The notes under the pieces are model-generated. The model did no database searches and was not told the DNA's origin. It was given only the letters and a program-made list of their open reading frames with translations. DNA of 64,000 nucleotides, taken from Eledone cirrhosa (Eukaryota). Both the position numbers and the translations under genes were made by a program. The DNA lies in the NCBI GenBank assembly GCA_964016885.1, contig OZ024755.1:41168001-41232000 (forward strand), in the 5' to 3' direction. Below, one piece after another: positions 13,892 to 57,600 of this stretch (the stretch's first letter is position 1; each line of letters opens with the position of its first letter).

Positions 13892-13985
<94 letters not shown>

Positions 13986-14082: not shown

Positions 14083-14116
<34 letters not shown>

Positions 14117-17022: not shown

Positions 17023-17026
17023 CGCC

Positions 17027-17207
17027 TTGGCAGTATCGGTAGAGGGTTGGTCGCCATGCTTTGCAGCAAAGAGTTACGTCCCTTTACGATCTGAGTTAAA
17101 ATCCCGCCGAGGTTAACTTTGCATTTCATCCATAAGGGGTCGATAAAATAAAGTACCAGTAATGTACTGGGTAATTGCTGGCCCTGTACCAAAAGTAGAA
17201 ACAATTA
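17027..17207 (+). mobile_element. tRNA-derived SINE abutting the R4/Dong fragment
   Basis: Same family as 7818-8004. Confidence 0.85.
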
Positions 17208-20025: not shown

Positions 20026-20288
20026 AAAAAGGGATGAAATCGAAAATGCAACTGAAGTCTTATTTTTTTTTTAAATATATATATTTATTTGGTTCCTTTA
20101 CCGGTTTCGCAGTTCTTCTGCTTTTCAAAAGGTGAGTTGAGATGGAGGGTCTGTGGTTTTTCTCACATATATATATATATTTCCCAGTCTACTACCCTAA
20201 GTATTCTGTACTCTGGTGCGTTATGGTCCATCTGGTTCCTTACCACACTTCCTTTGTTATATATATATATACAGTATATATATATACA

Positions 20289-20415: not shown

Positions 20416-20480
<65 letters not shown>

Positions 20481-20629
20481 ATATAATATATTAATAAATG
20501 GAAACTATATTTATAAATATAGTTTCCATTTATTAATATATTGTGTACTTACTCCACTAACTTGTTGAGTTCTTTATATCAGTTATAACATTTTTTATAA
20601 CCTCTGCATATACTGTATATATATATATA

Positions 20630-23942: not shown

Positions 23943-24077
23943 AAAAGAGTGGGGGCACCGACGGCTGAGCTCCGACCATCGGGGTCCTGACTTTTTCCCT
24001 AATACCCACTCTACTAGCCTAAGTATCGAGTACTCGGTGCGCTATATTCCACCTGGTTTCTTACCACACTTTCTTTG

Positions 24078-24105
<28 letters not shown>

Positions 24106-26260: not shown

Positions 26261-26308
<48 letters not shown>

Positions 26309-26321
26309 AAAAAAAGGAAAA

Positions 26322-26886
26322 GAATGACTTCACTTCTGGTTCTAAACAATTTGATTAAATTTTATAATATTATAATAGTATGAGTTGGTAGATCTAGTAA
26401 GTTCTTTGTTAACTTCGGTGGGAAGATTTTTAAAGATTCCTGGTTAACTTTCTTGGAGAACTTTCTCGCATTCTTCGGTGGCGATTGTCAAACTGAGATC
26501 AGGTTGTGTTGAGATGTGAGACTCTATATATCAGAGAGATTTGGATGTGTCTGGGGGATGTGGTGTGGTGTTAATGAGTGTGAGAGTGAAGGAATGTTGA
26601 TGAAGATTTAAAGGAATTAAAGCATACACACACACACATGCACACACACACACAGAAAATGGTGTAGTTTGACAGCATGATAAGAGTGTTGAAGAAGGGG
26701 GCTGTAAAAGCCCCCCCCCCCTGCTGGTTCCATTTCAATAGATGACCTGATCTCCAAGAAAGTTAACCAGTAATCTTTAAAGATCTTCCCACCGAAGTTA
26801 ACAAAGAACTTACTAGATCTACCAACTCATAATATTATAATATAAAATTAAATCAAATTGTTTAGAACTTCAAGTGAAGTCATTCG
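26322..26886. mobile_element. Element with ~135-bp terminal inverted repeats (duplicate at 29423-29987)
   Basis: 26322-26459 is the reverse complement of 26751-26886; left end lies just inside a (TA)n tract. Confidence 0.7.
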
Positions 26887-26939
26887 TTTCCTTTGTTTCA
26901 AATATACCTAACTGTACCAAGGACCTCACACATTTTCCA

Positions 26940-27080
<141 letters not shown>

Positions 27081-29371: not shown

Positions 29372-29409
<38 letters not shown>

Positions 29410-30037
29410 AAAAAAAGGAAAAGAATGACTTCACTTCTGGTTCTAAACAATTTGATTAAATTTTATAATATTATAATAGTATGAGTTGGTAGATCTAGTA
29501 AGTTCTTTGTTAACTTCGGTGGGAAGATTTTTAAAGATTCCTGGTTAACTTTCTTGGAGAACTTTCTCGCATTCTTCGGTGGCGATTGTCAAACTGAGAT
29601 CAGGTTGTGTTGAGATGTGAGACTCTATATATCAGAGAGATTTGGATGTGTCTGGGGGATGTGGTGTGGTGTTAATGAGTGTGAGAGTGAAGGAATGTTG
29701 ATGAAGATTTAAAGGAATTAAAGCATACACACACACACATGCACACACACACACAGAAAATGGTGTAGTTTGACAGCATGATAAGAGTGTTGAAGAAGGG
29801 GGCTGTAAAAGCCCCCCCCCCCCTGCTGGTTCCATTACAATAGATGACCTGATCTCCAAGAAAGTTAACCAGTAATCTTTAAAGATCTTCCCACCGAAGT
29901 TAACAAAGAACTTACTAGATCTACCAACTCATAATATTATAATATAAAATTAAATCAAATTGTTTAGAACTTCAAGTGAAGTCATTCTTTTCCTTTGTTT
30001 CAAATATACCTAACTGTACCAAGGACCTCACACATTT

Positions 30038-30190
<153 letters not shown>

Positions 30191-31052: not shown

Positions 31053-31098
31053 TATATATATATAATATATATATATATATTATATATTATATATATAT

Positions 31099-31526
31099 AT
31101 ACTGATTAATGTTCAGAGCCATCCTCAGCATTCTCGTGTAGCACCCATCCACCATCTGAGTGAGTCTCTTGGTCAGTGTCCAAGTCTCAGACCCATACAG
31201 CAGCACAGACTCCACTACAGAAATGAGGATGAAAAACTCAGAGCTGTATGGGAGCATCCCAAAAGTCAGCTCAAAAGTGACACAGAGGAGACTGAGGTTG
31301 GCTGGACATGCTCACCGACATCCAGAGTTGACATTGCACTCAGTGCTCCTTTGGGAGCCCCTACATGGACACACTAGAAGAGGAAGACCAAGGTTAACAT
31401 ATGTTGATGCCCTAATGACAGACACTGGTCTGTTGGAGATGCAGGATATGGCAGCGATAATGAGGGACAGAGACCGCTGGAGAGAACTCGTCCATGGATC
31501 TCGGGAATTTTACCCGCCTTAGATAG

Positions 31527-34485: not shown

Positions 34486-34518
<33 letters not shown>

Positions 34519-34925
34519 GAGAAGAAAGAATACTGCGTGGTTGCACATGGGTTAAATATGATAAAAATAGTCCTTCGTCAGTGATTTTCCAAATACCAAT
34601 GAAGGTTGGAAAATCACTGACGAAGGACTATATATATATATATTGTTGTTGTTATACTTGGGAAGAGTGATATTGTTGTAATAATATTGCCAGAAATAAT
34701 AACAGAACACACTCACTGTTTGGTTTGGGTTGGTTTTCGCTTCTGTATCTTTTATATCTCCATTGATCTGGCGATCAATGTTTATCAATGATTGACAATG
34801 GGTTTTTCAAACCGGAAATATTTAGGATCATTAAATTTGCTAAGGTAAGATTCTCTTGTTATCTTAGCAATTCAATTTTCTTTCTGATGCATTTTTGGGT
34901 TTTAATAATTATTTAAATTTGTGTT

Positions 34926-35025: not shown

Positions 35026-35073
35026 GTACATTAGCATTGTTTGCTATCCTTTCTGGAGCATCTGGACAATTAT
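35026..35073 (+). CDS. Host-gene 48-nt phase 1-1 exon encoding signal peptide (G)TLALFAILSGASG|QL
   Basis: CTAAC branch site, polypyrimidine tract ttttttctttctgtcag, donor GTGAGT. Hydrophobic h-region followed by an A-S-G cleavage motif. Confidence 0.8.
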
Positions 35074-35513
35074 GTGAGTTTTTATTTTCATTTTCATTTT
35101 ATAACTCTATTTATAACTGCAAGTCCATATAGATCACTATGAGTGTATAATATCTTGGAAGGAGTAAAATGAAAATATAGGGACCCCATAAGGAGCTGTT
35201 TTAGTTGGAACTGTTGAGACTACCTTACCAACATTTCCTTGTTTGTATATAGTGGAATCTGGGTTTAACAAGAATAACTAAACAGTGAAGCACTTTGAAC
35301 ATCAAATGTGGGGATTTGCGGCTCAAATTCTCAAACCTAACATTTGTCATCTTTTCTAGACGCATTTGCTTTTATAATTTACAAGGAAGGCCAGCACGTG
35401 GGACCCCATTTGCTCACCATACAGAGAGAGGGGAGGCGATGAGGGTGGGAGTTCGGCTCTTCCACATTCGGACCATATCCTTGTGGTTGTGTTTATTATC
35501 TATAGAGTTCATT

Positions 35514-35694: not shown

Positions 35695-36588
35695 ATTATC
35701 TATAGAGTTCATTCTATCATTCAGTTGTTACCATCAATCTAATCTAAAGACATTTCTAGTCTAAAGACATTTACAAGGAATTATCGGCCAAATATCTTTC
35801 AGTCTGTGGCGCTGGAGACGTTTTGAGGAGCTGATCCGCTAACAACAAGGTTCTTGTCATTGTTGTCGGCCTGCCTTACCGAACAATCAGGTGATACCGT
35901 GAGGTGCTTGGTTATTCCAGCGTCTTAGCCATGCTACCCCTCTAGATTGAAGTTCCAACACCCCTTATACAACGCATCAATAGGTAGCCAGTACTATGAC
36001 ACTATGTCTAATTGAATTCAATAAATAGAATGAAAGGACCTCAAATATGCTACATAAATAAAATAAGCAATATTTACCGAAAGTGAGTTCGCAGGACATC
36101 AAGATGTTTCGGTGATTATTCCCGTTATCAATCAGTGTTGAACTAAAGACAATTACTCGCTTAGTAAAACAATATAAAACAGTTGTTGAAACCATGATAG
36201 GTTGGTATATAAATCGACCACAAATTGGCAAATGAACAATAAAGTCACTTTAAATATCACCGAGAAATAGTAACTGTCTTGGAAAAACAGAGAAAATACT
36301 TTCGCAGTGATTTACTGAAGCGAATGTGATGGAGTGCAGCTTCGTTGTTAAGGTGTTTGACGCACGATGTGGCCTTGGTAAAGACACTTTATTTAACTCT
36401 TAGTCATCTCAGGTAAGGAAAATGAGTTTTATCTGTAATTCAAGGGGCCGGATATATCACATATGCTTCATGCTAAACCTCCCCGAGAATCACGTTAAAT
36501 CCCACGTTGTAACTCAATATAGTAAGTAGGTGGTAAGAGTGTGTGGAGGGTGAGAAAAAGAAAGAGAGAAGGAAAGAGAGAGAGCGAA

Positions 36589-36669
<81 letters not shown>

Positions 36670-36679
36670 AAGTACGAGT

Positions 36680-36721
<42 letters not shown>

Positions 36722-38215
36722 AAGAATCAAAGAACTGTTCAAAACATTATTGTGCTTACAGCTGTTTCCTCCAAACCGAGGTTTGGATTCTTCGGAGCAA
36801 TTTATTAATGCATGGACAGTTATATGACCTCCTTTTCAGCCGAGAGACATACCAAATACATATTCAAACATTGATACATATTCAAACATTGTGGGTCAAC
36901 ATTCATTACAGAATTTAGAGTGGCAGTACACACTTCGAGATTACATTTATATTAATAGGTACAATCAAAAATCAAAGATATAGGTTAAAGTACAGCATGA
37001 AGATAAGTGGTTATATAGTGCAAATGTTATATGTGTGGCACGCATGTGCGTCTTGTTTATATAGTGTGGCAGAGAGATATGTGTGGTAGAGGCACTTAGG
37101 TAGGTAAATAAGAGTGTTAGGTTGGTAGGTCTGGTGGCAAAGTCTTTATATGATTGATATAGTCTGTGTGTGGAGAAATATTATAAGCATTAAAGATAGT
37201 GCAAGCATTAAAAGTGTTATAAGTATTGGAGATGCACAGCGCAGGGATGTCAAGTAATTCATGTACTTCGGCATTTTCATGGTCAAGGGAGTGTATATTT
37301 CGATTATATGCCTTTCACATAATCCACGACAATCCAGTAAGAGATCGTAGTCTGGTGTTCTTTAGTTCGATACAGGGGGATGTTACGTTTCGAGAAACGC
37401 CATTGAATACCGGAAGTGTGTGTGTGGCTAAGGGGAGTTAATGCATGCGGGGAGGTAACTCTGGGGTTTCTATATCTAGCCATTAAAATGTGTCCCAATA
37501 TAGACCCTAAATTCTATGGTGAGGTGCACCTTCCAAGAGAGACTTTTAAAGCATAAAGTGTACTAACTATAGAGTAGTTTATATTATTATTAAGGTGGAT
37601 TAACCCATCTTAAGGTGCTACAAATGGAAATTATAGATGATGAGCGAGGATTCTAAAATGATCTCTGTGGTTGTAGTCTGCTCATATGACCAGGCGCGGT
37701 GATTGCAGGATTGCTTCAGGACCCAATGATCTCTGGTAAGATCTGGGTCATCGCTTGCTACATTGGATGTCGAAAGATAATCGTCCCCAGGCAGGCCAAG
37801 GTCAATCCGCAGTCCTCGCGACCCCTCTCTGACCGTCAGATCATCCATATACGTACAACCCGCACGGCAGTTGCATTGCATTCACTCACTGCGCTCAGCA
37901 GCCCGGTCCTACTGGTCAACAGCGCTACTCGATTAAATCATTTTACATCTGTCTAAGGAAGGTGTTTCCTCTGCCCAACAACATCCAACCGATCAATTCA
38001 TGCTCAAAATTACCCTTAGAGCGGTGTAGTGCCATCAAGTGGGTGGATGTTGTCACACCTGCCGTAGAGGTATAAATGGGTATTTTCCCTGCGAAGGGTT
38101 CCAGAGGGATGCCGTTGTTTGTGTTATAATGGATCAGCTAGTGTTGGGTATGTAGTATAGGGTGTGTTTCTGGTGTTTGATGCTAGATGTGGTGTTAGGT
38201 TCCAGTCCGACATTG

Positions 38216-39909
38216 CTATATATAGGGCTTAAAGTTTTGGAAGGAATGTCTGAGGCGGTGCTGGCAAGTTGCAAACACCTCAGATTTTTTGTTAAGTAGG
38301 TTACGGTTGGAGAAGATAATATTGTGTGTCTCTAGAATACAGAGGTTACAGAATTTATTAGGTGGTTTGTACGAGGTCGCGCTGCCTATCACTTCCCATT
38401 TGAGTGTGTATGGTTTATTTTTAGATTTTAGATAGTGTATGTAGCTAGAAAGTGAGGTGGAGTTGGCTAGGCTGTGCTTTTTGAACGAGTGGATGTGCGA
38501 GTTATATCTGATTTTGAAGCAGTTAGAAGTGGAGCCTACATAGGTTTCTGAAGAGTTATTAGTCGTGACTGTGCATGAGTATATGACATCCTTGGTTAGG
38601 CATTTTTTATCTAAAGGGCAGGTTCTATTAGCTCTACAGTTACAATTATTCTGTGCGTTAGTCCGCTGGTTATAATGCAATGCGGAAGTCTGTGTGGTGG
38701 ATATAGGATTTTGGGTGTTCGGGTTGGCAACCCTGGTGTTATTACTTATACTAGTGTTATTTCTATTGTTACTGCCGTTGCTATTGTTGCTTGCTACAGT
38801 GGTATTTAGAGGGTTTGCATCCTGTTGTGATTTTGTTTGTTGGAAGTAAGAACTAATTTTACTATTATTGCTGCTAGCTATGTGGTATGCTAAGTTAGGC
38901 GTCGTAGAGTATGAGATTTTAATGGTGTTTTTGTTTAAGAGGTTGTGGTACTTGTGTCCTAGAGGGAAGTTTTTATCTAGTAGTGAGAAGAAAGCCCTAG
39001 GTATGTTGGTGGAGACATTTAGGTTGAAAGGAGGGTTGAAAAATGTATTATTTCTTCTTCTATTTTTGTTTTTAGTGTTTGGTGTGTTGCTTCCTCCTAA
39101 GGCCTCACAGTAGTTTCCATGGTAATGGTTACTTCCTGTGGCACCCTCCGCTTTGGTGTACTTGTGGTTGCTATTCCTATTATTAGATTTCCTCATGGAC
39201 ATGTTGTGCGAGATTATGTTGTAGCTATGTGTTTTCTTAGGTAGGAACTCAATTTCTATATTATGGCCGGAGCTAGCTAATGCTTGATTGTAATATTGTG
39301 AGTTTTTGCTAAATATGTTTGCGTCATAGGACAGACTAGAGATTCTATTGGACACCCCCTTAGAGATAGAGTTTAATATTGATCTAGGGTGATTAGACTT
39401 GGTATCTACGTAAATAAGTTTCTCATTAGGCTTATGGAAAGGTGTATATATTTTTGAGTCTAGGTATAGTGTGGCGTCTAGGAAGTTAACATTTTTAGTG
39501 TTTTTGTCCATGGTGATACTAAGGTTAAAGTTTTTGAATGTCTTATGCAGTTGTTTTCTAGTTCTTTCTATATTAAATTTTTTATATTCTATGAGTAGAA
39601 GTGCATCATCGCGGTACAAACCACCGTTGAGGTAAGGGAGGTCTTTATGGATTTCATTGAGGAGGTATAGGCCGACCAAATCAGTGACCTGCGCCGAGTC
39701 ACTAGATCCCATGGTTATGTCGAAGTTGTTGTGCGTATCCTTGCGTGTCCATAGTTGGTCCTCGAAGGTGATTATGGTTTTACGGGCCGCAAGGATGACA
39801 TCAACCTGGGCTCTAGTCAGGTCGCTATTGGTCATGGCCATGATAAGTGCCTTATTTAATAGGATAGGGGAAATAGAGGTGTAGTATGAATTGATATCAA
39901 ATTGAATAA
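38216..39909 (-). CDS. Inverted copy of the same PLE RT-EN ORF
   Basis: Translation is identical to 39902-41659 from IQFDI onward except GSSD vs GSID. Confidence 0.9.
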
Positions 39910-41659
39910 TACGGGTGAAGTAATTGAATGGTTTAAGGATATCAAGAATAATAAAAACAAAAAATTTATTCAATTTGATATCAATTCATACTACACCTCT
40001 ATTTCCCCTATCCTATTAAATAAGGCACTTATCATGGCCATGACCAATAGCGACCTGACTAGAGCCCAGGTTGATGTCATCCTTGCGGCCCGTAAAACCA
40101 TAATCACCTTCGAGGACCAACTATGGACACGCAAGGATACGCACAACAACTTCGACATAACCATGGGATCTATTGACTCGGCGCAGGTCACTGATTTGGT
40201 CGGCCTATACCTCCTCAATGAAATCCATAAAGACCTCCCTTACCTCAACGGTGGTTTGTACCGCGATGATGCACTTCTACTCATAGAATATAAAAAATTT
40301 AATATAGAAAGAACTAGAAAACAACTGCATAAGACATTCAAAAACTTTAACCTTAGTATCACCATGGACAAAAACACTAAAAATGTTAACTTCCTAGACG
40401 CCACACTATACCTAGACTCAAAAATATATACACCTTTCCATAAGCCTAATGAGAAACTTATTTACGTAGATACCAAGTCTAATCACCCTAGATCAATATT
40501 AAACTCTATCTCTAAGGGGGTGTCCAATAGAATCTCTAGTCTGTCCTATGACGCAAACATATTTAGCAAAAACTCACAATATTACAATCAAGCATTAGCT
40601 AGCTCCGGCCATAATATAGAAATTGAGTTCCTACCTAAGAAAACACATAGCTACAACATAATCTCGCACAACATGTCCATGAGGAAATCTAATAATAGGA
40701 ATAGCAACCACAAGTACACCAAAGCGGAGGGTGCCACAGGAAGTAACCATTACCATGGAAACTACTGTGAGGCCTTAGGAGGAAGCAACACACCAAACAC
40801 TAAAAACAAAAATAGAAGAAGAAATAATACATTTTTCAACCCTCCTTTCAACCTAAATGTCTCCACCAACATACCTAGGGCTTTCTTCTCACTACTAGAT
40901 AAAAACTTCCCTCTAGGACACAAGTACCACAACCTCTTAAACAAAAACACCATTAAAATCTCATACTCTACGACGCCTAACTTAGCATACCACATAGCTA
41001 GCAGCAATAATAGTAAAATTAGTTCTTACTTCCAACAAACAAAATCACAACAGGATGCAAACCCTCTAAATACCACTGTAGCAAGCAACAATAGCAACGG
41101 CAGTAACAATAGAAATAACACTAGTATAAGTAATAACACCAGGGTTGCCAACCCGAACACCCAAAATCCTATATCCACCACACAGACTTCCGCATTGCAT
41201 TATAACCAGCGGACTAACGCACAGAATAATTGTAACTGTAGAGCTAATAGAACCTGCCCTTTAGATAAAAAATGCCTAACCAAGGATGTCATATACTCAT
41301 GCACAGTCACGACTAATAACTCTTCAGAAACCTATGTAGGCTCCACTTCTAACTGCTTCAAAATCAGATATAACTCGCACATCCACTCGTTCAAAAAGCA
41401 CAGCCTAGCCAACTCCACCTCACTTTCTAGCTACATACACTATCTAAAATCTAAAAATAAACCATACACACTCAAATGGGAAGTGATAGGCAGCGCGACC
41501 TCGTACAAACCACCTAATAAATTCTGTAACCTCTGTATTCTAGAGACACACAATATTATCTTCTCCAACCGTAACCTACTTAACAAAAAATCTGAGGTGT
41601 TTGCAACTTGCCAGCACCGCCTCAGACATTCCTTCCAAAACTTTAAGCCCTATATATAG
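39902..41659 (+). CDS. 5'-truncated Penelope-like element ORF (RT plus C-terminal GIY-YIG endonuclease), Nematis-like
   Basis: RT motifs FDINSYYTSI, TMGSxDSAQVTDLVGLYLL, LYRDD, NFLD; linker FFNPPF...KNTIKISYS; CNC...CPL...C; EN motifs VIY..TYVG, RYNSH, CNLC..E, LLNKKSE. Clade label is from memory of motifs. Confidence 0.92.
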   Translation: MNNTGEVIEWFKDIKNNKNKKFIQFDINSYYTSISPILLNKALIMAMTNSDLTRAQVDVILAARKTIITFEDQLWTRKDTHNNFDITMGSIDSAQVTDLVGLYLLNEIHKDLPYLNGGLYRDDALLLIEYKKFNIERTRKQLHKTFKNFNLSITMDKNTKNVNFLDATLYLDSKIYTPFHKPNEKLIYVDTKSNHPRSILNSISKGVSNRISSLSYDANIFSKNSQYYNQALASSGHNIEIEFLPKKTHSYNIISHNMSMRKSNNRNSNHKYTKAEGATGSNHYHGNYCEALGGSNTPNTKNKNRRRNNTFFNPPFNLNVSTNIPRAFFSLLDKNFPLGHKYHNLLNKNTIKISYSTTPNLAYHIASSNNSKISSYFQQTKSQQDANPLNTTVASNNSNGSNNRNNTSISNNTRVANPNTQNPISTTQTSALHYNQRTNAQNNCNCRANRTCPLDKKCLTKDVIYSCTVTTNNSSETYVGSTSNCFKIRYNSHIHSFKKHSLANSTSLSSYIHYLKSKNKPYTLKWEVIGSATSYKPPNKFCNLCILETHNIIFSNRNLLNKKSEVFATCQHRLRHSFQNFKPYI

Positions 41660-43075
41660 CAATGTCGGACTGGAACCTAACACCACATCTAGCATCAAAC
41701 ACCAGAAACACACCCTATACTACATACCCAACACTAGCTGATCCATTATAACACAAACAACGGCATCCCTCTGGAACCCTTCGCAGGGAAAATACCCATT
41801 TATACCTCTACGGCAGGTGTGACAACATCCACCCACTTGATGGCACTACACCGCTCTAAGGGTAATTTTGAGCATGAATTGATCGGTTGGATGTTGTTGG
41901 GCAGAGGAAACACCTTCCTTAGACAGATGTAAAATGATTTAATCGAGTAGCGCTGTTGACCAGTAGGACCGGGCTGCTGAGCGCAGTGAGTGAATGCAAT
42001 GCAACTGCCGTGCGGGTTGTACGTATATGGATGATCTGACGGTCAGAGAGGGGTCGCGAGGACTGCGGATTGACCTTGGCCTGCCTGGGGACGATTATCT
42101 TTCGACATCCAATGTAGCAAGCGATGACCCAGATCTTACCAGAGATCATTGGGTCCTGAAGCAATCCTGCAATCACCGCGCCTGGTCATATGAGCAGACT
42201 ACAACCACAGAGATCATTTTAGAATCCTCGCTCATCATCTATAATTTCCATTTGTAGCACCTTAAGATGGGTTAATCCACCTTAATAATAATATAAACTA
42301 CTCTATAGTTAGTACACTTTATGCTTTAAAAGTCTCTCTTGGAAGGTGCACCTCACCATAGAATTTAGGGTCTATATTGGGACACATTTTAATGGCTAGA
42401 TATAGAAACCCCAGAGTTACCTCCCCGCATGCATTAACTCCCCTTAGCCACACACACACTTCCGGTATTCAATGGCGTTTCTCGAAACGTAACATCCCCC
42501 TGTATCGAACTAAAGAACACCAGACTACGATCTCTTACTGGATTGTCGTGGATTATGTGAAAGGCATATAATCGAAATATACACTCCCTTGACCATGAAA
42601 ATGCCGAAGTACATGAATTACTTGACATCCCTGCGCTGTGCATCTCCAATACTTATAACACTTTTAATGCTTGCACTATCTTTAATGCTTATAATATTTC
42701 TCCACACACAGACTATATCAATCATATAAAGACTTTGCCACCAGACCTACCAACCTAACACTCTTATTTACCTACCTAAGTGCCTCTACCACACATATCT
42801 CTCTGCCACACTATATAAACAAGACGCACATGCGTGCCACACATATAACATTTGCACTATATAACCACTTATCTTCATGCTGTACTTTAACCTATATCTT
42901 TGATTTTTGATTGTACCTATTAATATAAATGTAATCTCGAAGTGTGTACTGCCACTCTAAATTCTGTAATGAATGTTGACCCACAATGTTTGAATATGTA
43001 TCAATGTTTGAATATGTATTTGGTATGTCTCTCGGCTGAAAAGGAGGTCATATAACTGTCCATGCATTAATAAAT

Positions 43076-43122
43076 TGCTCCGAAGAATCCAAACCTCGGT
43101 TTGGAGGAAACAGCTGTAAGCA
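43076..43122 (+). ncRNA. Minimal type I hammerhead motif in PLE 3' end (mirror copy 36753-36799 on - strand)
   Basis: tgct-CCGAAGA-stem II tccaaacc/ggtttgga-GAAAC-AGCT-GUA-agca; palindromic stem III CAGCTG; U4C core variant. Confidence 0.7.
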
Positions 43123-43323
43123 CAATAATGTTTTGAACAGTTCTTTGATTCTTATATTTCATATAACTGCTCTGTAAATCATCTGATGTTTTTACATTGA
43201 GCTACTTAACTTACTGGTAATAAGGTAGTAATACGTTACTGCCTACCACTATTTAGGGTGTGTGTAAAATACTTACAACTGCTTAAGGCTTTGTATTTAC
43301 ATAACCATAAATAGTATAACTAA

Positions 43324-43351
<28 letters not shown>

Positions 43352-43354
<3 letters not shown>

Positions 43355-43528
43355 GGAACCAGTAAGACCCCGACGGCTGAGCTCAAACCGTTTCGACGGC
43401 TAATTCTGAGTCCAGAATTAGCCGTCGAAAAGGTTTGAGCTCAGCCGTCGGGGTCTTACTGGTTCCTATTGCCCACTCTACTACCCTAAGTATTGAGTAC
43501 TTTGGTGCGTTATGGTCCACCTGGTTCC
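43352..43528. mobile_element. PLE pLTR end with ~57-bp fold-back inverted duplication
   Basis: Same family as 3885-4272; arms meet at ctg-agtc-cag; flanked by (TA)n. Confidence 0.8.
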
Positions 43529-43545
43529 TTACCACATTTCCTTCG

Positions 43546-43615
<70 letters not shown>

Positions 43616-43619
<4 letters not shown>

Positions 43620-43801
43620 GCTCTCACCGTATTTTTGACTAAAGGAATTTTAGCATGATAATGGGGTTTAGAACCCTCAGATAAATGGAAAAAGATGAGT
43701 ATTGACGTACGTCAATAGTCATCTTTTTCCATTTATCTGAGGGTTCTAAGCCCCATTATCAGGCTAAAATTCCTTTAGTCAAAAATACGGTGAAAGCTAT
43801 T
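43616..43801. mobile_element. Spacer-less palindromic element (93-bp arms), MITE/fold-back-like
   Basis: Centre GACGT|ACGTC at 43708/43709; AATAG...CTATT termini; about 4 mismatches. Confidence 0.65.
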
Positions 43802-43847
43802 CTATTTTCTAATTTCAAACCTGCTCACTGTTTCAAAACATACTTAA

Positions 43848-45529: not shown

Positions 45530-45865
45530 GTCATCAGCCAGCGAGTTGTCTGCACATTGTCACCACTTTCATTATGTGTGAGGAAAAAGATGCATCATCG
45601 CTCATGTCTATACCCAGGTCTCGTATCGATTTCGAGACGGTGATATCGGTCCCTCCTGGTCCGGCCTAACTGTGTTGTACTGTATTTGTGTTTGCAGGTT
45701 TGTATTGTAGGGCTTTTTTTTGCCAGCATTAAACTGCATGTTGTTGTCTTCCGCCCATTTGTATATGGCATCCAGATCTTGTTGTAAAAGGGCAGCATCA
45801 GCCGGGTTTTTGATTGCCTGTGCTACCTTATTGTCATCAGCATAGCTAGTGCGGGATGTTGTTGT
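45530..45865 (-). pseudogene. CR1/Jockey-group LINE RT fragment
   Basis: SYADDNKV..LQQDLDAIYKWAEDNNMQFN.GK, then IRDLGIDMSDDASFSSHI. Confidence 0.8.
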
Positions 45866-45887
45866 ATGTTGTTGTATGTATATATTA

Positions 45888-45955
<68 letters not shown>

Positions 45956-46124
45956 ATATCGGAGAAAGCTTTTTAGCGATACTCCGGCCAAATTCCAACT
46001 CACTCAACAAACATTAGGAAATAAGTGATTATATTCCCAATTATGTGTTCGGGGTGCTAACTAAAAGTATTGCGTGGAAAATTGGCTGTATTATTTCATA
46101 TGAGACATATCTAATATATCTCTT

Positions 46125-47087: not shown

Positions 47088-47229
47088 TCACGCTCCACAA
47101 AGATTCTATAACATTATCTCAAGGACACAAAGGAATTGTACAAATTCTTGAAGCAGGAACGGTTTTACCATTGATTCAAAGTATTTCAGCAGCTGACGCT
47201 AAAAACATCTGTATTACGAGAGGATACTA
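47088..47229 (+). CDS. Host-gene 142-nt exon, N-terminal half of a divergent SRCR-like domain (FTLHKDSITLSQGHKGIVQILEAGTVLPLIQSISAADAKNICITRGY)
   Basis: Acceptor tttatatttgtcaacag, donor GTAAGT at 47230. Open in the phase set by the previous exon. Pattern I.L..G..G.V.I...G...DA..IC...GY resembles SRCR VRL..G..GRVEI..G.WG..C...DA.VVCRQLGY. Confidence 0.75.
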
Positions 47230-48687: not shown

Positions 48688-51600
48688 GTCAGATTCCATG
48701 GTGATCCCTGTTCTCTACGTCCAGTCTGTCACATTCCATGGTGATCCCTGTTCTCTACGTCCAGTCTGTCAGATTCCATGGTGATCCCTGTTCTCTACGT
48801 CCAGTCTGTCACATTCCATGGTGATCCCTGTTCTCTATGTCCAGCCTGTCAGATTCCATGGTGATCCCTGTTCTCTACGTCCAGTCTGTCACATTCCATG
48901 GTGATCCCTGTTCTCTACGTCCAGTCTGTCAGATTCCATGGTGATCCCTGTTCTCTACGTCCAGTCTGTCACATTCCATGGTGATCCCTGTTCTCTACGT
49001 CCAGTCTGTCACATTCCATGGTGATCCCTGTTCTCTACGTCCAGCCTGTCAGATTCCATGGTGATCCCTGTTCTCTATGTCCAGTCTGTCACATTCCATG
49101 GTGATCCCTGTTCTCTACGTCCAGTCTGTCACATTCCATGGTGAACCCTGTTCTCTACGTCCAGTCTGTCACATTCCATGGTGATCCCTGTTCTCTACGT
49201 CCAGTCTGTCAGATTCCATGGTGATCCCTGTTCTCTACGTCCAGTCTGTCACATTCCATGGTGATCCCTGTTCTCTATGTCCAGCCTGTCAGATTCCATG
49301 GTGATCCCTGTACTCTACGTCCAGTCTGTCACATTCCATGGTGATCCCTGTTCTCTATGTCCAGTCTGTCAGATTCCATGGTGATCCCTGTTCTCTACGT
49401 CCAGTCTGTCACATTCCATGGTGATCCCTGTTCTCTACGTCCAGCCTGTCAGATTCCATGGTGATCCCTGTTCTCTATGTCCAGCCTGTCTGATTCCATG
49501 GTGATCCCTGTTCTCTATGTCCAGCCTGTCAGATTCCATGGTGATCCCTGTTCTCTATGTCCAGTCTGTCAGATTCCGTGGTGATCCCTGTTCTCTATGT
49601 CCAGCCTGTCAGATTCCATGGTGATCCCTGTTCTCTATGTCCAGCCTGTCAGATTCCATAGTGATCCCTGTTCTCTACGTCCTGTCTGTCAGATTCCATG
49701 GTGATCCCTGTTCTCTATGTCCAGCCTGTCAGATTCCATGGTGATCCCTGTTCTCTATGTCCAACCTGTCAGATTCCATGGTGATCCCTGTTCTCCATGT
49801 CCAGTCTGTCAGATTCCATGGTGATCCCTGTTCTCTATGTCCAGCCTGTCAGATTCCATGGTGATCCCTGTTCTCTATGTCCAGCCTGTCAGATTCCATG
49901 GTGATCCCTGTTCTCTATGTCCAGCCTGTCAGATTCCATGGTGATCCCTGTTCTCCATGTCCAGTCTGTCAGATTCCATAGTGATCCCTGTTCTCTATGT
50001 CCAGCCTGTCAGATTCCATGGTGATCCCTGTTCTCTACGTCCAGCCTGTCAGGTTCCATGGTGATCCCTGTTCTCTATGTCCAGCCTGTCAGGTTCCATG
50101 GTGATCCCTGTTCTCTATGTCCAGCCTGTCAGATTCCATGGTGATCCCTGTTCTCTACGTCCAGCCTGTCAGGTTCCATGGTGATCCCTGTTCTCTATGT
50201 CCAGCCTGTCAGGTTCCATGGTGATCCCTGTTCTCTACGTCCAGCCTGTGAGGTTCCATGGTGATCACTGTTCTCTATGTCCAGCCTGTCAGATTCCATG
50301 GTGATCCCTGTTCTCTACGTCCAGCCTGTCAGGTTCCATGGTGATCCCTGTTCTCTATGTCCAGACTGTCAGATTCCATGGTGATCCCTGTTCTCTATGT
50401 CCAGTCTGTCAGGTTCCATGGTGATCCCTGTTCTCTATGTCCAGTCTGTCAGATTCCATGGTGATCCCTGTTCTCTATGTCCAGTCTGTCAGATTCCATA
50501 GTGATCCCTGTTCTCTACGTCCAGCCTGTCAGATTCCATGGTGATCCCTGTTCTCTATGTCCTGTCTGTCAGATTCCATGGTGATCCCTGTTCTCTACGT
50601 CCAGCCTGTCAGATTCCATGGTGATCCCTGTTCTCTATGTCCTGTCTGTCAGATTCCAAGGTGATCCCTGTTCTCTACGTCCAGCCTGTCAGATTCCATG
50701 GTGATCCCTGTTCTCTATGTCCTGTCTGTCAGATTCCATGGTGATCCCTGTTCGCTATGTCCAGTCTGTCAGATTCCATGGTGATCCCTGTTCTCTATGT
50801 CCAGTCTGTCGGATTCCATGGTGATCCCTGTTCTCTATGTCCAGTCTGTCAGATTCCATGGTGATCCCTGTTCTCTATGTCCAGTCTGTCAGATTCCATG
50901 GTGATCCCTGTTCTCTACGTCCAGCCTGTCAGATTCCATGGTGATCCCTGTTCTCTATGTCCTGTCTGTCAGATTCCATGGTGATCCCTGTTCTCTACGT
51001 CCAGCCTGTCAGATTCCATGGTGATCCCTGTTCTCTATGTCCTGTCTGTCAGATTCCATGGTGATCCCTGTTCTCTATGTCCAGTCTGTCAGATTCCATG
51101 GTGATCCCTGTTCTCTATGTCCAGTCTGTCAGATTCCATGGTGATCCCTGTTCTCTATGTCCAGTCTGTCAGATTCCATGGTGATCCCTGTTCTCTATGT
51201 CCAACCTGTCAGATTCCATGGTGATCCCTGTTCTCCATGTCCAGTCTGTCAGATTCCATGGTGATCCCTGTTCTCTATGTCCAGCCTGTCAGATTCCATG
51301 GTGATCCCTGTTCTCTATGTCCAGCCTGTCAGATTCCATGGTGATCCCTGTTCTCTATGTCCAGCCTGTCAGATTCCATGGTGATCCCTGTTCTCCATGT
51401 CCAGTCTGTCAGATTCCATAGTGATCCCTGTTCTCTATGTCCAGCCTGTCAGATTCCATGGTGATCCCTGTTCTCTACGTCCAGCCTGTCAGGTTCCATG
51501 GTGATCCCTGTTCTCTATGTCCAGCCTGTCAGGTTCCATGGTGATCCCTGTTCTCTATGTCCAGCCTGTCAGATTCCATGGTGATCCCGGTTCTCTACGT

Positions 51601-54600
51601 CCAGCCTGTCAGGTTCCATGGTGATCCCTGTTCTCTATGTCCAGCCTGTCAGGTTCCATGGTGATCCCTGTTCTCTACGTCCAGCCTGTCAGGTTCCATG
51701 GTGATCCCTGTTCCTTATGTCCAGCCTGTCGGATTCCATGGTGATCCCTGTTCTCTAAGTCCAGCCTGTCAGGTTCCATGGTGATCCCTGTTCTCTATGT
51801 CCAGACTGTCAGATTCCATGGTGATCCCTGTTCTCTATGTCCAGTCTGTCAGGTTCCATGGTGATCCCTGTTCTCTATGTCCAGTCTGTCAGATTCCATG
51901 GTGATCCCTGTTCTCTATGTCCAGTCTGTCAGATTCCATAGTGATCCCTGTTCTCTACGTCCAGCCTGTCAGATTCCATGGTGATCCCTGTTCTCTATGT
52001 CCTGTCTGTCAGATTCCATGGTGATCCCTGTTCTCTACGTCCAGCCTGTCAGATTCCATGGTGATCCCTGTTCTCTATGTCCTGTCTGTCAGATTCCATG
52101 GTGATCCCTGTTCTCTACGTCCAGCCTGTCAGATTCCATGGTGATCCCTGTTCTCTATGTCCTGTCTGTCAGATTCCATGGTGATCCCTGTTCTCTATGT
52201 CCAGTCTGTCAGATTCCATGGTGATCCCTGTTCTCTATGTCCAGTCTGTCAGATTCCATGGTGATCCCTGTTCTCTATGTCCAGTCTGTCAGATTCCATG
52301 GTGATCCCTGTTCTCTATGTCCAGTCTGTCAGATTCCATGGTGATCCCTGTTCTCTATGTCCAGTCTGTCAGATTCCATGGTGATCCCTGTTCTCTACGT
52401 CCAGCCTGTCGGATTCCATGGTGATCCCTGTTCTCTATGTCCTGTCTGTCAGATTCCATGGTGATCCCTGTTCTCTACGTCCAGCCTGTCAGATTCCATG
52501 GTGATCCCTGTTCTCTATGTCCTGTCTGTCAGATTCCATGGTGATCCCTGTTCTCTATGTCCAGTCTGTCAGATTCCATGGTGATCCCTGTTCTCTATGT
52601 CCAGTCTGTCAGATTCCATGGTGATCCCTGTTCTCTATGTCCAGTCTGTCACATTCCATGGTGATCCCTGTTCTCTATGTCCAGTCTGTCAGATTCCATG
52701 GTCGTCCCTGTTCTCTATGTCCTGTCTGTCAGATTCCATCGTGATCCCTGATCTCTATGTCCAGTCTGTCAGATTCCATGGTGATCCCTGTTCTCTATGT
52801 CCTGTCTGTCAGATTCCATGGTGATCCCTGTTCTCTACGTCCAGCCTGTTAGATTCCATGGTGATCCCTGTTCTCTATGTCCAGTCTGTCAGATTCCATG
52901 GTGATCCCTGTTCTCTATGTCCTGTCTGTCAGATTCCATGGTGATCCCTGTTCTCTATGTCCTGTCTGTCAGATTCCATGGTGATCCCTGTTCTCTACGT
53001 CCAGCCTGTCAGATTCCATGGTGATCCCTGTTCTCTATGTCCTGTCTGTCAGATTCCAAGGTGATCCCTGTTCTCTATGTCCTGTCTGTCAGATTCCATG
53101 GTGATCCCTGTTCTCTACGTCCAGCCTGTCAGATTCCATGGTGATCCCTGTTCTCTATGTCCTGTCTGTCAGATTCCATGGTGATCCCTGTTCTCTATGT
53201 CCAGCCTGTCAGATTCCATGGTGATCCCTGTTCTCTACGTCCAGCCTGTCAGATTCCATGGTGATCCCTGTTCTCTATGTCCTGTCTGTCAGATTCCATG
53301 GTGATCCCTGTTCTCTATGTCCTGCCTGTCAGATTCCATGGTGATCCCTGTTATCTATGTCCTGTCTGTCAGATTCCATAGTGATCCCTGTTCTCTACGT
53401 CCAGCCTGTCAGATTCCATGGTGATCCCTGTTCTCTATGTCATGTCTGTCAGATTCCATGGTGATCCCTGTTCTCTATGTCCAGCCTGTCAGATTCCATG
53501 GTGATCCCTGTTCTCTATGTCCTGTCTGTCAGATTCCATGGTGATCCCTGTTCTCTATGTCCTGTCTGTCAGATTCCATGGTGATCCCTGTTCTCTATGT
53601 CCTGTCTGTCAGATTCCATGGTGATCCCTGTTCTCTACGTCCAGTCTGTCAGATTCCATGGTGATCCCTGTTCTCTATGTCCAGTCTGTCAGATTCCATG
53701 GTGATCCCTGTTCTCTATGTCCTGTCTGTCAGATTCCATGGTGATCCCTGTTCTCTATGTCCAGTCTGTCAGATTCCATGGTGATCCCTGTTATCTATGT
53801 CCTGTCTGTCAGATTCCATGGTGATCCCTGTTCTCTACGTCCAGCCTGTCAGATTTCATGATGATCCCTGTTCTCTATGTCCAGTCTGTCAGATTCCATG
53901 GTGATCCCTGTTCTCTATGTCCTGTCTGTCAGATTCCATGGTGATCCCTGTTCTCTATGTCCTGTCTGTCAGATTCCATGGTGATCCCTGTTCTCTACGT
54001 CCAGCCTGTCAGATTCCATGGTGATCCCTGTTCTCTATGTCCTGTCTGTCAGATTCCATGGTGATCCCTGTTCTCTATGTCCAGCCTGTCAGATTCCATG
54101 GTGATCCCTGTTCTCTACGTCCAGCCTGTCAGATTCCATGGTGATCCCTGTTCTCTATGTCCTGTCTGTCAGATTCCATGGTGATCCCTGTTCTCTATGT
54201 CCTGTCTGTCAGATTCCATGGTGATCCCTGTTCTCTATGTCCTGTCTGTCAGATTCCATAGTGATCCCTGTTCTCTACGTCCAGCCTGTCAGATTCCATG
54301 GTGATCCCTGTTCTCTATGTCCTGTCTGTCAGATTCCATGGTGATCCCTGTTCTCTATATCCAGTCTGTCAGATTCCATGGTGATCCCTGTTCTCTACGT
54401 CCAGCCTGTCAGATTCCATGGTGATCCCTGTTCTCTATGTCCTGTCTGTCAGATTCCATGGTGATCCCTGTTCTCTATGTCCAGCCTGTCAGATTCCATG
54501 GTGATCCCTGTTCTCTACGTCCAGCCTGTCAGATTCCATGGTGATCCCTGTTCTCTATGTCCTGTCTGTCAGATTCCATCGTGATCCCTGATCTCTATGT

Positions 54601-57600
54601 CCAGTCTGTCAGATTCCATGGTGATCCCTGTTCTTTATGTCCTGTCTGTCAGATTCCATGGTGATCCCTGTTCTCTACGTCCAGCCTGTCAGATTCCATG
54701 GTGATCCCTGTTCTCTATGTCCAGTCTGTCAGATTCCATGGTGATCCCTGTTCTCTATGTCCTGTCTGTCAGATTCCATGGTGATCCCTGTTCTCTATGT
54801 CCTGTCTGTCAGATTCCATGGTGATCCCTGTTCTCTACGTCCAGCCTGTCAGATTCCATGGTGATCCCTGTTCTCTATGTCCTGTCTGTCAGATTCCAAG
54901 GTGATCCCTGTTCTCTATGTCCTGTCTGTCAGATTCCATGGTGATCCCTGTTCTCTACGTCCAGCCTGTCAGATTCCATGGTGATCCCTGTTCTCTATGT
55001 CCTGTCTGTCAGATTCCATGGTGATCCCTGTTCTCTATGTCCAGCCTGTCAGATTCCATGGTGATCCCTGTTCTCTACGTCCAGCCTGTCAGATTCCATG
55101 GTGATCCCTGTTCTCTATGTCCTGTCTGTCAGATTCCATGGTGATCCCTGTTCTCTATGTCCTGTCTGTCAGATTCCATGGTGATCCCTGTTCTCTATGT
55201 CCTGTCTGTCAGATTCCATAGTGATCCCTGTTCTCTACGTCCAGCCTGTCAGATTCCATGGTGATCCCTTTTCTCTATGTCATGTCTGTCAGATTCCATG
55301 GTGATCCCTGTTCTCTATGTCCAGCCTGTCAGATTCCATGGTGATCCCTGTTCTCTATGTCCTGTCTGTCAGATTCCATGGTGATCCCTGTTCTCTATGT
55401 CCTGTCTGTCAGATTCCATGGTGATCCCTGTTCTCTATGTCCTGTCTGTCAGATTCCATGGTGATCCCTGTTCTCTACGTCCAGTCTGTCAGATTCCATG
55501 GTGATCCCTGTTCTCTATGTCCAGTCTGTCAGATTCCATGGTGATCCCTGTTCTCTATGTCCTGTCTGTCAGATTCCATGGTGATCCCTGTTCTCTATGT
55601 CCAGTCTGTCAGATTCCATGGTGATCCCTGTTCTCTATGTCCTGTCTGTCAGATTCCATGGTGATCCCTGTTCTCTACGTCCAGCCTGTCAGATTTCATG
55701 ATGATCCCTGTTCTCTATGTCCAGTCTGTCAGATTCCATGGTGATCCCTGTTCTCTATGTCCTGTCTGTCAGATTCCATGGTGATCCCTGTTCTCTATGT
55801 CCTGTCTGTCAGATTCCATGGTGATCCCTGTTCTCTACGTCCAGCCTGTCAGATTCCATGGTGATCCCTGTTCTCTACGTCCAGTCTGTCAGATTCGATG
55901 GTGATCCCTGTTCACTACGTCCAGTCTGTCAGATTCGATGGTGATCCCTGTTCTCTACGTCCAGTCTGTCAGATTCGATGGTGATCCCTGTTCTCTACGT
56001 CCAGTCTGTCAGATTCCATGGTGATCTCTGTTCTCTACGTCCAGTCTGTCAGATTCGATGGTGATCCCTGTTCTCTACGTCCAGTCTGTCAGATTCGATG
56101 GTGATCCCTGTTCTCTACGTCCAGTCTGTCAGATTCGATGGTGATCCCTGTTCCCTACGTCCAGTCTGTCAGATTCGATGGTGATCCCTGTTCTCTACGT
56201 CCAGTCTGTCAGATTCGATGGTGCTCCCTGTTCTCTACGTCCAGTCTGTCAGATTCGATGGTGATCCCTGTTCTCTATGTCCTGTCTGTCAGATTCCATG
56301 GTGATCCCTGTTCTCTATGTCCAGTCTGTCAGATTCCATGGTGATCCCTGTTCTCTATGTCCAGTCTGTCAGATTCCATGGTGATCCCTATTCTCTATGG
56401 CCAGCCTGTCAGATTCCATGGTGATCCCTATTCTCTACGTCCAGTCTGTCAGATTCCATGGTAATCCCTGTTCTCTATGTCCAGTCTGTCAGATTCCATG
56501 GTGATCCCTGTTCTCTACGTCCAGTCTGTCAGATTCCATGGTGATCCCTATTCTCTATGGACAGTCTGTCAGATTCCATGGTGATCCCTGTTCTCTATGT
56601 CCTGTCTGTCAAATTCCATGGTGATCCCTATTCTCTATGGCCAGTCTGTCAGTTTCCATGGTGATCCCTGTTCTCTATGTCCAGCCTGTCAGATTACATG
56701 GTGATCCCTGTTCTCTATGTCCAGTCTGTCAGATTCCATGGTGATCCTTGTTCTCTATGTCCAGTCTGTCAGATTCCATGGTGATCCCTGTTCTCTATGT
56801 CCAGCCTGTCAGATTCCATGTTGATCCCTGTTCTCTACGTCCAGTCTGTCAGATTCCATGGTGATCCCTGTTCTCTATGTGCTGTCTGTCAGATTCCATG
56901 GTGATCCCTGTTCTCTATGTCCAGTCTGTCAGATTCCATGGTGATCCCTGTTCTCTACGTCCAGTCTGTCAGATTCCATGGTGATCCCTGTTCTCTATGT
57001 CCTGTCTGTCAGATTCCATGGTGATCCCTGTTCTCTATGTCCAGTCTGTCGGATTCCATGGTGATCCCTGTTCTCTACGTCCAGTCTGTCAGATTCCATG
57101 GTGATCCCTGTTCTCTATGTCCTGTCTGTCACATTCCATGGTGATCCCTATTCCCTATGGCCAGTCTGTCAGATTCCATGGTGATCCCTGTTCTCTATGT
57201 CCAGTCTGTCAGATTCCATGGTGATCCCTGTTCTCTATGTCCTGTCTGTCACATTCCATGGTGATCCCTATTCTCTATGGCCAGTCTGTCAGATTCCATG
57301 GTGATCCCTGTTCTCTATGTCCAGTCTGTCAGATTCCATGGTGATCCCTGTTCTCTATGTCCAGTCTGTCAGATTCCATGGTGATCCCTGTTCTCTATGT
57401 CCAGGCTGTCAGATTCGATGGTGATCCCTGTTCTCTATGTCCAGCCTGTCAGATTCGATGGTGATCCCTGTTCTCTACGTCCAGTCTGTCAGATTCGATG
57501 GTGATCCCTGTCCTCTATGTCCTGTCTGTCAGATTCGATGGTGATCCCTGTTCTCTATGTCCTGTCTGTCAGATTCGATGGTGATCCCTGTTCTCTATGT

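Follow-up and report, generated by a model that had tools for sequence, protein, structure and literature searches.

The window, a 64,000-nt stretch of contig OZ024755.1 of Eledone cirrhosa (GCA_964016885.1), carried a palindrome composed of two indel-free arms of 3,200 nt each (36710-39909 and 39966-43165), which differed from one another at a single site (39702 C, 40173 T) and enclosed a loop of 56 nt (39910-39965); all of these figures, given previously in a first-pass annotation, were borne out. The left arm (minus strand) was an inverted, 5'-truncated and tail-less copy, the outer end of which corresponded to element position 43165 and the inner end to 39966 (or to 39968 if a 2-nt overlap is assigned to the right arm). 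The loop (plus strand) belonged to the right, tail-bearing arm and was confirmed to be genuine reverse transcriptase (RT) coding sequence, in frame with an ORF of 583 codons. The whole consists of two 5'-truncated Penelope-like element (PLE) copies arranged head to head between (TA)n tracts, and the flanks of the palindrome showed no mirror symmetry. None of the 32 pieces shown, out of 5,419 contig and read pieces, bridged the turn, and no piece in the same comparison spanned the whole palindromic stretch.

On the left, a (GA)n run was followed by a (TA)17.5 target tract (together 36559-36714, the tract itself at 36680-36714), the final ATATA of which overlapped the end of the left arm. On the right lay a (TA)14 target tract (43327-43354), after which another family contributed a short hairpin, likewise head to head (43352-43548). 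Both outer ends of the insertion sat within (TA)n, and the microsatellite preference suggested earlier is upheld in the form of (TA)n targeting. The intronic placement given in the first-pass annotation could not be confirmed. One strong exon-like segment was present to the left of the palindrome (35026-35073) and a weak one to its right (47088-47229); homologue and atlas searches with the peptide of 47090-47227 gave no matching host protein, and in a Pfam scan of 121 of about 200 listed window ORFs only transposon matches passed, with no host protein among them.

The 5'-truncated ORF (39908-41659, plus strand), characterized by motifs, homologues and folds, encoded in order an RT with core and thumb, two inserts rich in Asn and of low confidence, a CxCX5C linker (CNCRANRTC) and a GIY-YIG-like endonuclease with CxxC..E (CNLCILE) and CxH (CQH) motifs. 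The RT was identified from its motifs (YRDD and FD), from homologues and from its fold, the predicted structure matching RT folds in Foldseek, TERT among them, with E down to 3.8e-6; Pfam gave no RT match for the ORF, and a sequence-profile search of PDB returned 0 matches. The GIY-YIG match in Pfam (E 0.022) fell under the cut-off, and the residues Y, YxG, R, H, E and N were invariant in alignment A1. A single Cys lay between VIY and YVG, so that CCHH, which places two Cys within the GIY-YIG core, was lacking, and the pattern CX2-5CxxC was absent from the ORF. Although the RT and endonuclease domains do lie inside the palindrome, as annotated at first pass, the ORF is represented by no more than its C-terminal ~70%: approximately 235-245 N-terminal codons were absent relative to full-length homologues, including the region of the motifs DKT (61/75 full-length homologues) and RW[KR] (59/75), and this copy is unable to make a full-length protein. 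Protein relatives were distant (best identity 51% in one search, short fragments up to 64% in another, and 55% at best among the 150 homologues listed in a further one), so that no close sibling protein was available to show the residue preceding 39908.

A single ORF with RT plus a GIY-YIG endonuclease at its C-terminus, together with a one-sided tail and a 5'-truncated copy lying inverted at the 5' end, places the element among the EN+ PLEs; the PLE identity is as previously claimed. Within these, the CxCX5C linker, the CxxC and CxH motifs around E and N without CCHH, the (TA)n insertion and a hammerhead-like motif near the element end are those of the Hydra clade of C-terminal EN+ PLEs (Craig et al. 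2021, PMC8557442), which includes Hydra-1_Obim (Octopus bimaculoides, 2,507 bp) and Penelope-13_HM; judged from its sequence, the element is of Hydra type. Naiad (Naiad/Chlamys), an initial guess, was dropped, as the endonuclease is N-terminal in that group and C-terminal here. Most Hydra families are shorter than 3 kb, a length that is typical and not diagnostic, whereas the truncated unit here (39908-43329) already measured 3.42 kb, the extra length coming from a 3' region of 1.67 kb and from the two Asn-rich inserts. In the annotation of Penelope-13_HM, the inverted copy at the 5' end is 5'-truncated and 966 nt long, compared with an inverted arm of 3,200 nt holding most of the ORF here.

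The 1.5-kb 3' region, a pseudo-LTR-like element end (41660-43165, plus strand; X4 records 21-24), was also found in other copies and in a related organism (organism B). A hammerhead-like motif at 43076-43122 (plus strand), read from the sequence against published layouts, comprised a 4-bp stem I, a CCGAAGA core, a 7-bp stem II, GAAA, a palindromic CAGCTG helix III and a GUA site, and was mirrored in the left arm at about 36753-36799. Its core differs from the canonical Hydra hammerhead by a change of U4 to C. Stem II was recovered in an RNA fold; Rfam did not detect a hammerhead, its 13 matches being miRNA and AT-rich hairpin models outside the arms. The tail-less terminus lay in the motif CATATA/ACTG (43160-43169, plus strand; the slash marks the end at 43165), of which an identical 10-mer was present at 43049, and one X7 contig (loose end behind 43329) carried the same context on beyond the end of the tail. 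Both element ends are likely, on sequence grounds, to share the context TATA/ACTG. The tail itself (43166-43329, plus strand) occurred on the right arm only and measured 164 nt, compared with the usual 30-40 nt in PLEs; X4 record 24 covered 43083-43329 with three differences, and in each of X1, X2 and X7 the summed depth fell by half from the 43108-43223 bin to the final one. Previously, the left arm had been described as ending at an internal ATATA about 160 bp short of the element end. The fusion to (TA)17.5 and the further 164 nt on the right side were as described, but 43165 is better regarded as a recurrent family terminus (loose ends behind 43165 in two X7 contigs), and the one-sided tail is a published feature.

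At the turn, GAATAA (39904-39909) is complementary to TTATTC (39966-39971), and had been taken as 6 nt of microhomology; this pairing is an automatic consequence of the palindrome. The sole relative contig shown crossing the turn, X4 record 17, aligned over 39908-40200 and left 292 nt upstream unaligned, and an Asn after the conserved Trp, which follows from reading GAATAA as element sequence, was found in 2/152 homologues only. GAATAA could therefore not be confirmed as belonging to the element, and the 6-nt microhomology is unsupported. With true sense sequence shown from 39908 only, the perfect microhomology is likely to be 2 nt, a candidate inverted AA/TT at 39908-39909; at least 2 nt would be expected at 6% of random junctions. 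A second family joint (39913/41499, X2), head to head, strongly asymmetric and at single-copy depth, lay 3-5 nt from the turn. When metagenome contigs were scanned with a 23-nt pattern, the single match was a chance bacterial one (L001), and scans of genome and viral contigs for related loci found none.

Nine variants rare in the family were common to both arms, those in the ORF (two of two) being synonymous, which fits one source lineage; as contigs drop rare variants, the nine may not be private. The arms differed by 0.03%, and 18 of 2,735 nt plus four gap letters (0.66%) differed from the contigs of organism B. The ORF was open in both arms, and 17 of the 28 ORF differences listed were synonymous. 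At the mismatch site Ile occurred in 0/194 homologues and Ser in four (including P0003, P0146 and P0009), and the derived base probably lies on the tail-bearing arm. A very recent insertion, with the palindrome formed at insertion time, agrees with the first-pass annotation and is likely.

The one-sided tail was repeated in short hairpins nearby. The longer, loop-owning arm was the tail-less one in two of five informative window hairpins (5279-5703 and 34512-34641) and the tail-bearing one in the 3.2-kb palindrome and two siblings, one of them weak; hairpins 23175, 26301/29402 and 43612, with no usable reference or a rearranged loop, were left out of this count. In the three youngest (the 3.2-kb palindrome, that at 43352 with 56/57 identity, and probably that at 3964 with 143/143) the loop was on the tail arm, while the two with a tail-less loop were older (116/125 and 34/36), came from families other than this one and may have arisen by central deletion at a later time. 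Loops in the siblings measured 2, 4, 13 and 23 nt, and the sibling turn at 43409-43412 showed zero microhomology against two references. Hairpin 20479-20548 was dropped as a two-arm insertion, as it resembles a local internal duplication.

L1 twin priming inverts non-overlapping RNA parts and does not duplicate the same stretch, whereas here the same 3.2 kb is duplicated. In the text consulted of a study on fold-back inverted duplications and twin priming of LINE-1 (10.1101/2024.12.14.628481), the small hairpins with 2-bp microhomology and the use of two primers at a single target site resemble the present case, although the fold-back duplications there are genomic DNA, unlike the retroelement copies here. 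The canonical PLE insertion unit, as far as the available text of PMC3846280 and the Fig. 2 legend of PMC8557442 describe it for Pen2a, Pen3 and Pen4 of Adineta vaga, likewise has an inverted 5'-truncated copy adjoining the 5' end, a palindromic junction and a tail on one end, along with Asn-rich inserts in an open ORF. Inverted arrangements containing the ORF are reported there for Pen3, but in that same text the units come from short-read assemblies with mostly pLTR-sized arms, and no pair of 3.2-kb arms around a loop of 56 nt appears in it. The first-pass annotation attributed inverted and tandem insertions to PLEs, and head-to-head inverted copies are a published layout. The only experimental PLE study found concerns the Poseidon element PAc, predicted to be a dimer (Frangieh et al. 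2024, PMC11167929); in vitro, both target strands were cut and extended, and two internal RT starts matched two genomic tail ends, a likeness drawn from another clade than Hydra, in work that neither reconstituted nor explained the head-to-head joint.

The explanation to which we give about even weight is that both nicked target strands prime cDNAs at two RNA start sites, and that these cDNAs are joined head to head. The element endonuclease would nick both strands of (TA)n; the right cDNA would begin at the tail end (~43329-43331) and the left at the internal TATA/ACTG (43165), so that two different start sites leave a tail on one side only (for this step the geometry is observed and the process proposed). 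Both cDNAs would extend ~3.2-3.4 kb and halt within 58 nt of each other, probably because of one template RNA or a stop site in common, and their ends would then anneal on ~2 nt or be end-joined, each templating the second strand of the other. The outer ends in (TA)n, a terminus at 43165 elsewhere, the probable TATA/ACTG at both ends (on the tail side, from a single X7 contig) and the PAc results all argue for this, as do the zero-microhomology sibling turn, the asymmetric joint 39913/41499, the likely derived base on the tail-bearing arm and the nine shared variants. The tail-less-arm loops also count in its favour, since a tail-bearing first-strand copy cannot directly give them. Against it, two independent ~3.2-kb truncations would end within 58 nt by chance in about 3% of cases under a generous uniform model, so that a coupling of the two ends has to be assumed. 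In an unlikely variant, a dimeric RT would copy a single RNA twice from two repeated TATA/ACTG starts; the leading cDNA would be displaced by the one trailing it, and the two would run off the same RNA 5' end near 39908-39913. If true, this would explain identical arms, one-sided tails and short loops independent of arm length at once, with second strands made by mutual templating and microhomology unneeded, and the 39913 joint would mark a preferred RNA end or be this very palindrome in decay by central deletion.

Snap-back, the route put forward at first pass, is possible, at rather less than even probability, and is not the best supported: a cDNA started from the right-hand (TA)n would reach 39908, fold on the ~2-nt AA/TT and copy itself for 3.2 kb, ending by a cut or template switch at TATA/ACTG onto the left (TA)n. 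It accounts well for a 56-nt loop beside 3,200-nt arms, for the loop on the tail arm in the three youngest hairpins (which also tells against two-ended priming), for the short sibling loops, the shared rare variants and a microhomology of at least 2 nt; self-priming has been proposed for palindromic PLE junctions in the discussion of PMC3846280, and at L1 sites 2-bp microhomology is read as support for self-annealing in 10.1101/2024.12.14.628481. A second process would nevertheless be needed to stop the copy exactly at the recurrent terminus, for which an RT start is the explanation offered by the in vitro data, and two siblings carry the loop on the tail-less arm, one has zero microhomology, and the 6-nt pairing is unsupported. 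It is improbable that the perfect palindrome was produced by polishing or by fold-back reads from an inverted insertion that was in truth shorter or asymmetric. The lack of bridging and spanning pieces among those compared, the high copy number of the family, the microsatellites at both ends and the single-copy-depth joint starting 3-5 nt from the turn would all suit such an artefact, but the flanks are unmirrored, the arms differ at one site, the left arm stops at a biological terminus present in another sample, nearby hairpins repeat the one-sided tail, and the loop has 3-5 true bases upstream of 39913 and therefore cannot derive from the 39913 molecule alone. We attach similarly low probability to a later DNA event, in which fold-back break repair duplicated an insertion of greater age or arm-to-arm conversion made its arms alike, and near-identity would then not date the insertion. 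The 0.66% difference from organism B and the nine shared variants, set against 0.03% between arms, speak for this, since 18 arm differences would be expected had the nine arisen in place (P of at most one, 3e-7); the open ORF in both arms, the synonymous character of the rare ORF variants and of most listed ORF differences, fitting an active source lineage, and an inverted copy stopping exactly at the family terminus speak against it.

The origin of tandem and inverted PLE insertions is stated to be open (PMC8557442, section 15; PMC11167929). With short arms, the scars of snap-back and of two-ended priming would be nearly alike, while 3.2-kb arms with a 56-nt loop, if real, mean that two truncation points were coupled. 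A near-perfect palindrome of 6.5 kb is likely to be an unstable site and, if transcribed, a source of hairpin RNA; this one is likely a very recent by-product that serves no function itself. It is an unusually long case, as noted at first pass, of a known PLE insertion layout, and as such a good test case and not a new system, with three discriminating read-outs in the family: the arm to which the loop belongs, the arm on which the derived bases lie, and whether the same motif stands at both ends.

The palindrome at 36710-43165 consists of two 3,200-nt arms (36710-39909 and 39966-43165) separated by a 56-nt loop, and base-by-base comparison, with which a second comparison agreed, found no indels and a single mismatch (39702 C versus 40173 T), as the first-pass annotation had described. 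Complementarity stopped immediately beyond the arms, and the flanks are therefore unmirrored: the outer end of the left arm enters a (TA)17.5 tract (36680-36714), and on the right side 164 extra bases follow the arm before a (TA)14 tract (43327-43354). The structure lies far beyond chance expectation; it looks real, and is likely a very recent, unusually long case of a known Penelope insertion layout.

Identification as a Penelope-like element (PLE) stands on motifs, homologues and RT fold. A stop-free frame spans 39890-41659 on the plus strand, with its mirror image on the minus strand. The predicted structure of this ORF, modelled from 21 aligned sequences at a mean pLDDT of 73 and with its two Asn-rich inserts disordered, resembles reverse transcriptases, TERT among them (structure search, E down to 3.8e-6), and the best named protein matches were from Argonauta and Octopus. 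Its C-terminal part gave a weak Pfam match to GIY-YIG (E 0.022, under the cut-off) and carries a CxCX5C linker, CxxC..E and CxH motifs and one Cys only within the GIY-YIG core, a pattern given for the Hydra clade in section 11 of PMC8557442, the supplement of which, in the part available, records a Hydra family in Octopus bimaculoides. Together with the Argonauta and Octopus matches, this record points to an octopod as the likely host. The Hydra N-terminal markers DKT and RW[KR], present in 61 and 59 of 75 full-length homologues, respectively, lie in a region missing from the focal copies. At 43076-43122 the sequence can be read, against the layouts in PMC4209133 and the PMC8557442 supplement, as a hammerhead-like arrangement whose core is CCGAAGA; Rfam detected no hammerhead there. 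The element is thus likely a member of the Hydra clade, assigned by motifs rather than by phylogeny against reference sequences, although it exceeds the clade's typical 3 kb. Homologous proteins begin approximately 235-245 residues further upstream, and both focal copies are therefore 5'-truncated and unable to encode a full-length protein.

Contigs of four of 17 listed sequencing runs (X1 and X2 from one sample of organism A, possibly the source of the window, X7 from another sample of A, X4 from organism B) were aligned to 39860-43330, the listings covering 40, 24 and 32 of the 336 difference rows, 433 loose ends and 5,419 pieces, respectively. In X1 and X2, single contigs reached depths of 1,612-2,951, compared to 7-16 for most others among the matches listed, which suggests hundreds of near-identical family copies, depth not being equal to copy number. 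Inside the loop, at 39960, the family is polymorphic in length by 3 in-frame nt, which were present in 42% of X1 depth and absent from X4. At nine or more arm positions the window letter, present in both arms, accounted for no more than 6% of X1 and X2 depth and did not occur in X4 or X7. These nine rare variants were likely inherited from the source lineage, since origin in place predicts about 18 arm differences (P 3e-7) and neither of the two ORF-located variants changes the encoded residue (17 of the 28 ORF differences listed being likewise synonymous). One difference in 3,200 likely dates the insertion as very recent, in line with the first-pass annotation.

The opening six codons of the frame are, judging from homologues, left-arm sequence, because the window has Leu where Trp stands in 98 of 103 pattern-matching homologues (of 120) and in 140 of 152 (of 289). 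X4 record 17 (585 nt) aligned to 39908-40200 with 2 differences. The 292 nt at its start match nothing within 39860-43330 and show no joint among the matches listed, and so probably represent the genuine ORF upstream. With the record aligning only from 39908, perfect overlap with the left arm is likely 2 nt (39908-39909), and the roughly 6-nt microhomology (GAATAA) proposed earlier was not borne out when set against family sequence. The residue following the conserved Trp in the 152 homologues (Lys 65, Arg 48, Asn 2) likewise argues against GAATAA as element sequence, an imperfect 5-of-6 match being possible if the codon after Trp were AAA. At random junctions, microhomology of at least 2 nt has a frequency of 6%, and of 6 nt 0.03%. 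An X2 contig (depth 7.7; short side 34 letters) links 39913 to 41499 on opposite strands with no shared letters, forming another head-to-head joint 3-5 nt from the focal turn (rough chance 0.4%), with a TACG repeat no more than 3 nt from either break point; it may represent an independent insertion or a 38377-39912 deletion from the focal palindrome.

The 164 nt past 43165 are element sequence (X4 record 24 covers 43083-43329 with 3 differences) and constitute the one-sided tail described for PLEs in the available text of PMC8557442. Among the matches listed, two X7 contigs depart behind 43165 into TA-rich letters; in X1, X2 and X7 the last bin has half the summed depth of the 43108-43223 bin. 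The left arm terminates within a 10-mer, CATATAACTG, found at 43049 and 43160, and at least two copies of its 8-mer core occurred in 6 of 2,000 shuffles. Beyond 43329, an X7 contig among those listed shows the same TAACTGCTC context. An earlier description of the left end as lying about 160 bp short of the 3' end at an internal ATATA was correct in the shortfall (164 nt), but the site fits a recurrent terminus (43165) with a one-sided tail better than an internal position.

Priming from both nicked target strands, with subsequent joining of the two cDNAs, has about an even chance of having made the focal palindrome. This one process would account for both termini, and is compatible with a longer arm on either side, with turns lacking microhomology, and with asymmetric joints like that at 39913/41499. 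The single experimental study located concerns a Poseidon protein: PMC11167929 reports that it cuts and extends both target strands, and that RT starts at two internal sites with which genomic tail ends coincide. Independent 3.2-kb truncations ending within 58 nt have a probability of about 3% under a uniform model, so two-ended priming must assume a shared template or stop.

Snap-back of one cDNA that then copies itself, a possible but weaker candidate, predicts that the loop is short and belongs to the tail arm, as it does here, but requires an extra cut or switch precisely at the recurrent terminus. The tail-bearing arm likely carries the derived base at the mismatch, because at that site Ile occurs in none of 194 homologues and Ser in 4, close ones among these; a first-strand error in snap-back would not yield this arrangement. 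The mismatch slightly favours two-ended priming; at a single site, later mutation or consensus error is also possible. None of the 32 listed pieces (of 5,419) crosses the turn, and so these do not independently confirm the locus. An assembly or library artefact is improbable, and a later DNA-level event equally so.

The window contains further short inverted-arm elements, mostly (TA)n-bounded and several with a one-sided tail. Arm/loop sizes, measured for 9 of 17 detected rows, were 143/23, 125/132, 34/2, 159/291 (plus a duplicate), 37/13, 57/4, 96/2 and 48/56. Loop ownership, assigned only where in-window reference copies run past the turn, fell to the tail arm in 3 of 5 cases (the focal palindrome; 43352-43469, where comparison with two references showed zero microhomology; and 3964-4272, a probable case with a weak alignment) and to the tail-less, longer arm in 2 of 5 (5279-5703 and 34512-34641), these exceptions having more diverged arms (116/125, 34/36) and belonging to other families. 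Hairpins at 20479-20548, 23175, 26301/29402 and 43612 were left out of this count. That at 20479-20548 resembles a local internal duplication and was rejected as a two-arm insertion, and the other three had a rearranged loop or lacked a reference that could be used; 43612-43805 (96-bp arms, 2-nt loop, one-sided extension of about 55 nt, between (TA)n tracts) has no reference copy within the window; and the duplicated element at 26301-26950 and 29402-30052 (159-bp arms) has in its 291-nt loop a minus-strand CCGAAGA stretch resembling the focal hammerhead variant. Short head-to-head hairpins and a one-sided tail of 76-80 nt mark another family that targets (TA)n, seen at 3885-4272, 43352-43548, 1686-1730, 1771-2261, 9301-9796, 999-1063, 20178-20259 and 23961-24079; the end of this family at 1771 may run uninterrupted into a Hydra-type endonuclease ORF (3045-3554, minus strand). 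Two 5'-truncated PLE copies, 88% identical (5682-6856 and 11395-12505), have a finger of the form CxxxxCxxC, GIY-YIG (11601-12041, E 1.2e-4 in Pfam), hammerhead core and tail, and are likely Neptune- or Naiad-like.

An intronic position of the focal palindrome is plausible, but the earlier label of intronic was too firm. Exon-like segments of a putative plus-strand host gene lie at 35026-35073, 35360-35444, 36348-36412 and 47088-47229, the first ranking 1 and the last 45 among the best 45 rows of a simple splice-site scan. Homologue and atlas searches with the 47090-47227 peptide, and a Pfam scan of 121 of about 200 listed ORFs in which only transposon matches passed, identified no host protein around the insertion. 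Elsewhere are recent local duplications, 98% identical and swapped in order (21295-23306/27304-29276, 2.0 kb; 26160-27307/29271-30417, 1.15 kb), a satellite of 40-bp units about 95% identical (48688-64000; at least 15 kb, extending past the window end), long stretches of low complexity at 14165-16024 and 12992-14222, made up of (CAC/CAT)n-like and (GA/GT)n tracts and extreme in GC skew, and LINE RT fragments (16404-17204, RVT_1 E 5e-9; 31090-31519; 45611-46003).

Inverted copies were discussed in older Penelope papers. Inverted 5'-truncated copies, palindromic junctions, tails and Asn-rich inserts are all published for PLEs in the available text of PMC3846280 and PMC8557442, and self-priming has already been proposed in that literature. 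The inverted copy of Penelope-13_HM, of the Hydra clade, is 966 nt long (PMC8557442 supplement, available part), compared to 3,200 nt for the focal inverted arm. The openly accessible literature listings and passages searched, among them PMC13282606, PMC12910113, 10.64898/2026.07.22.740005 and 10.1101/2024.12.14.628481, contained no multi-kilobase near-perfect PLE palindrome and no explicit account of head-to-head PLE joints by priming from two ends. The focal palindrome is an ordinary kind of insertion and a useful mechanistic test case.
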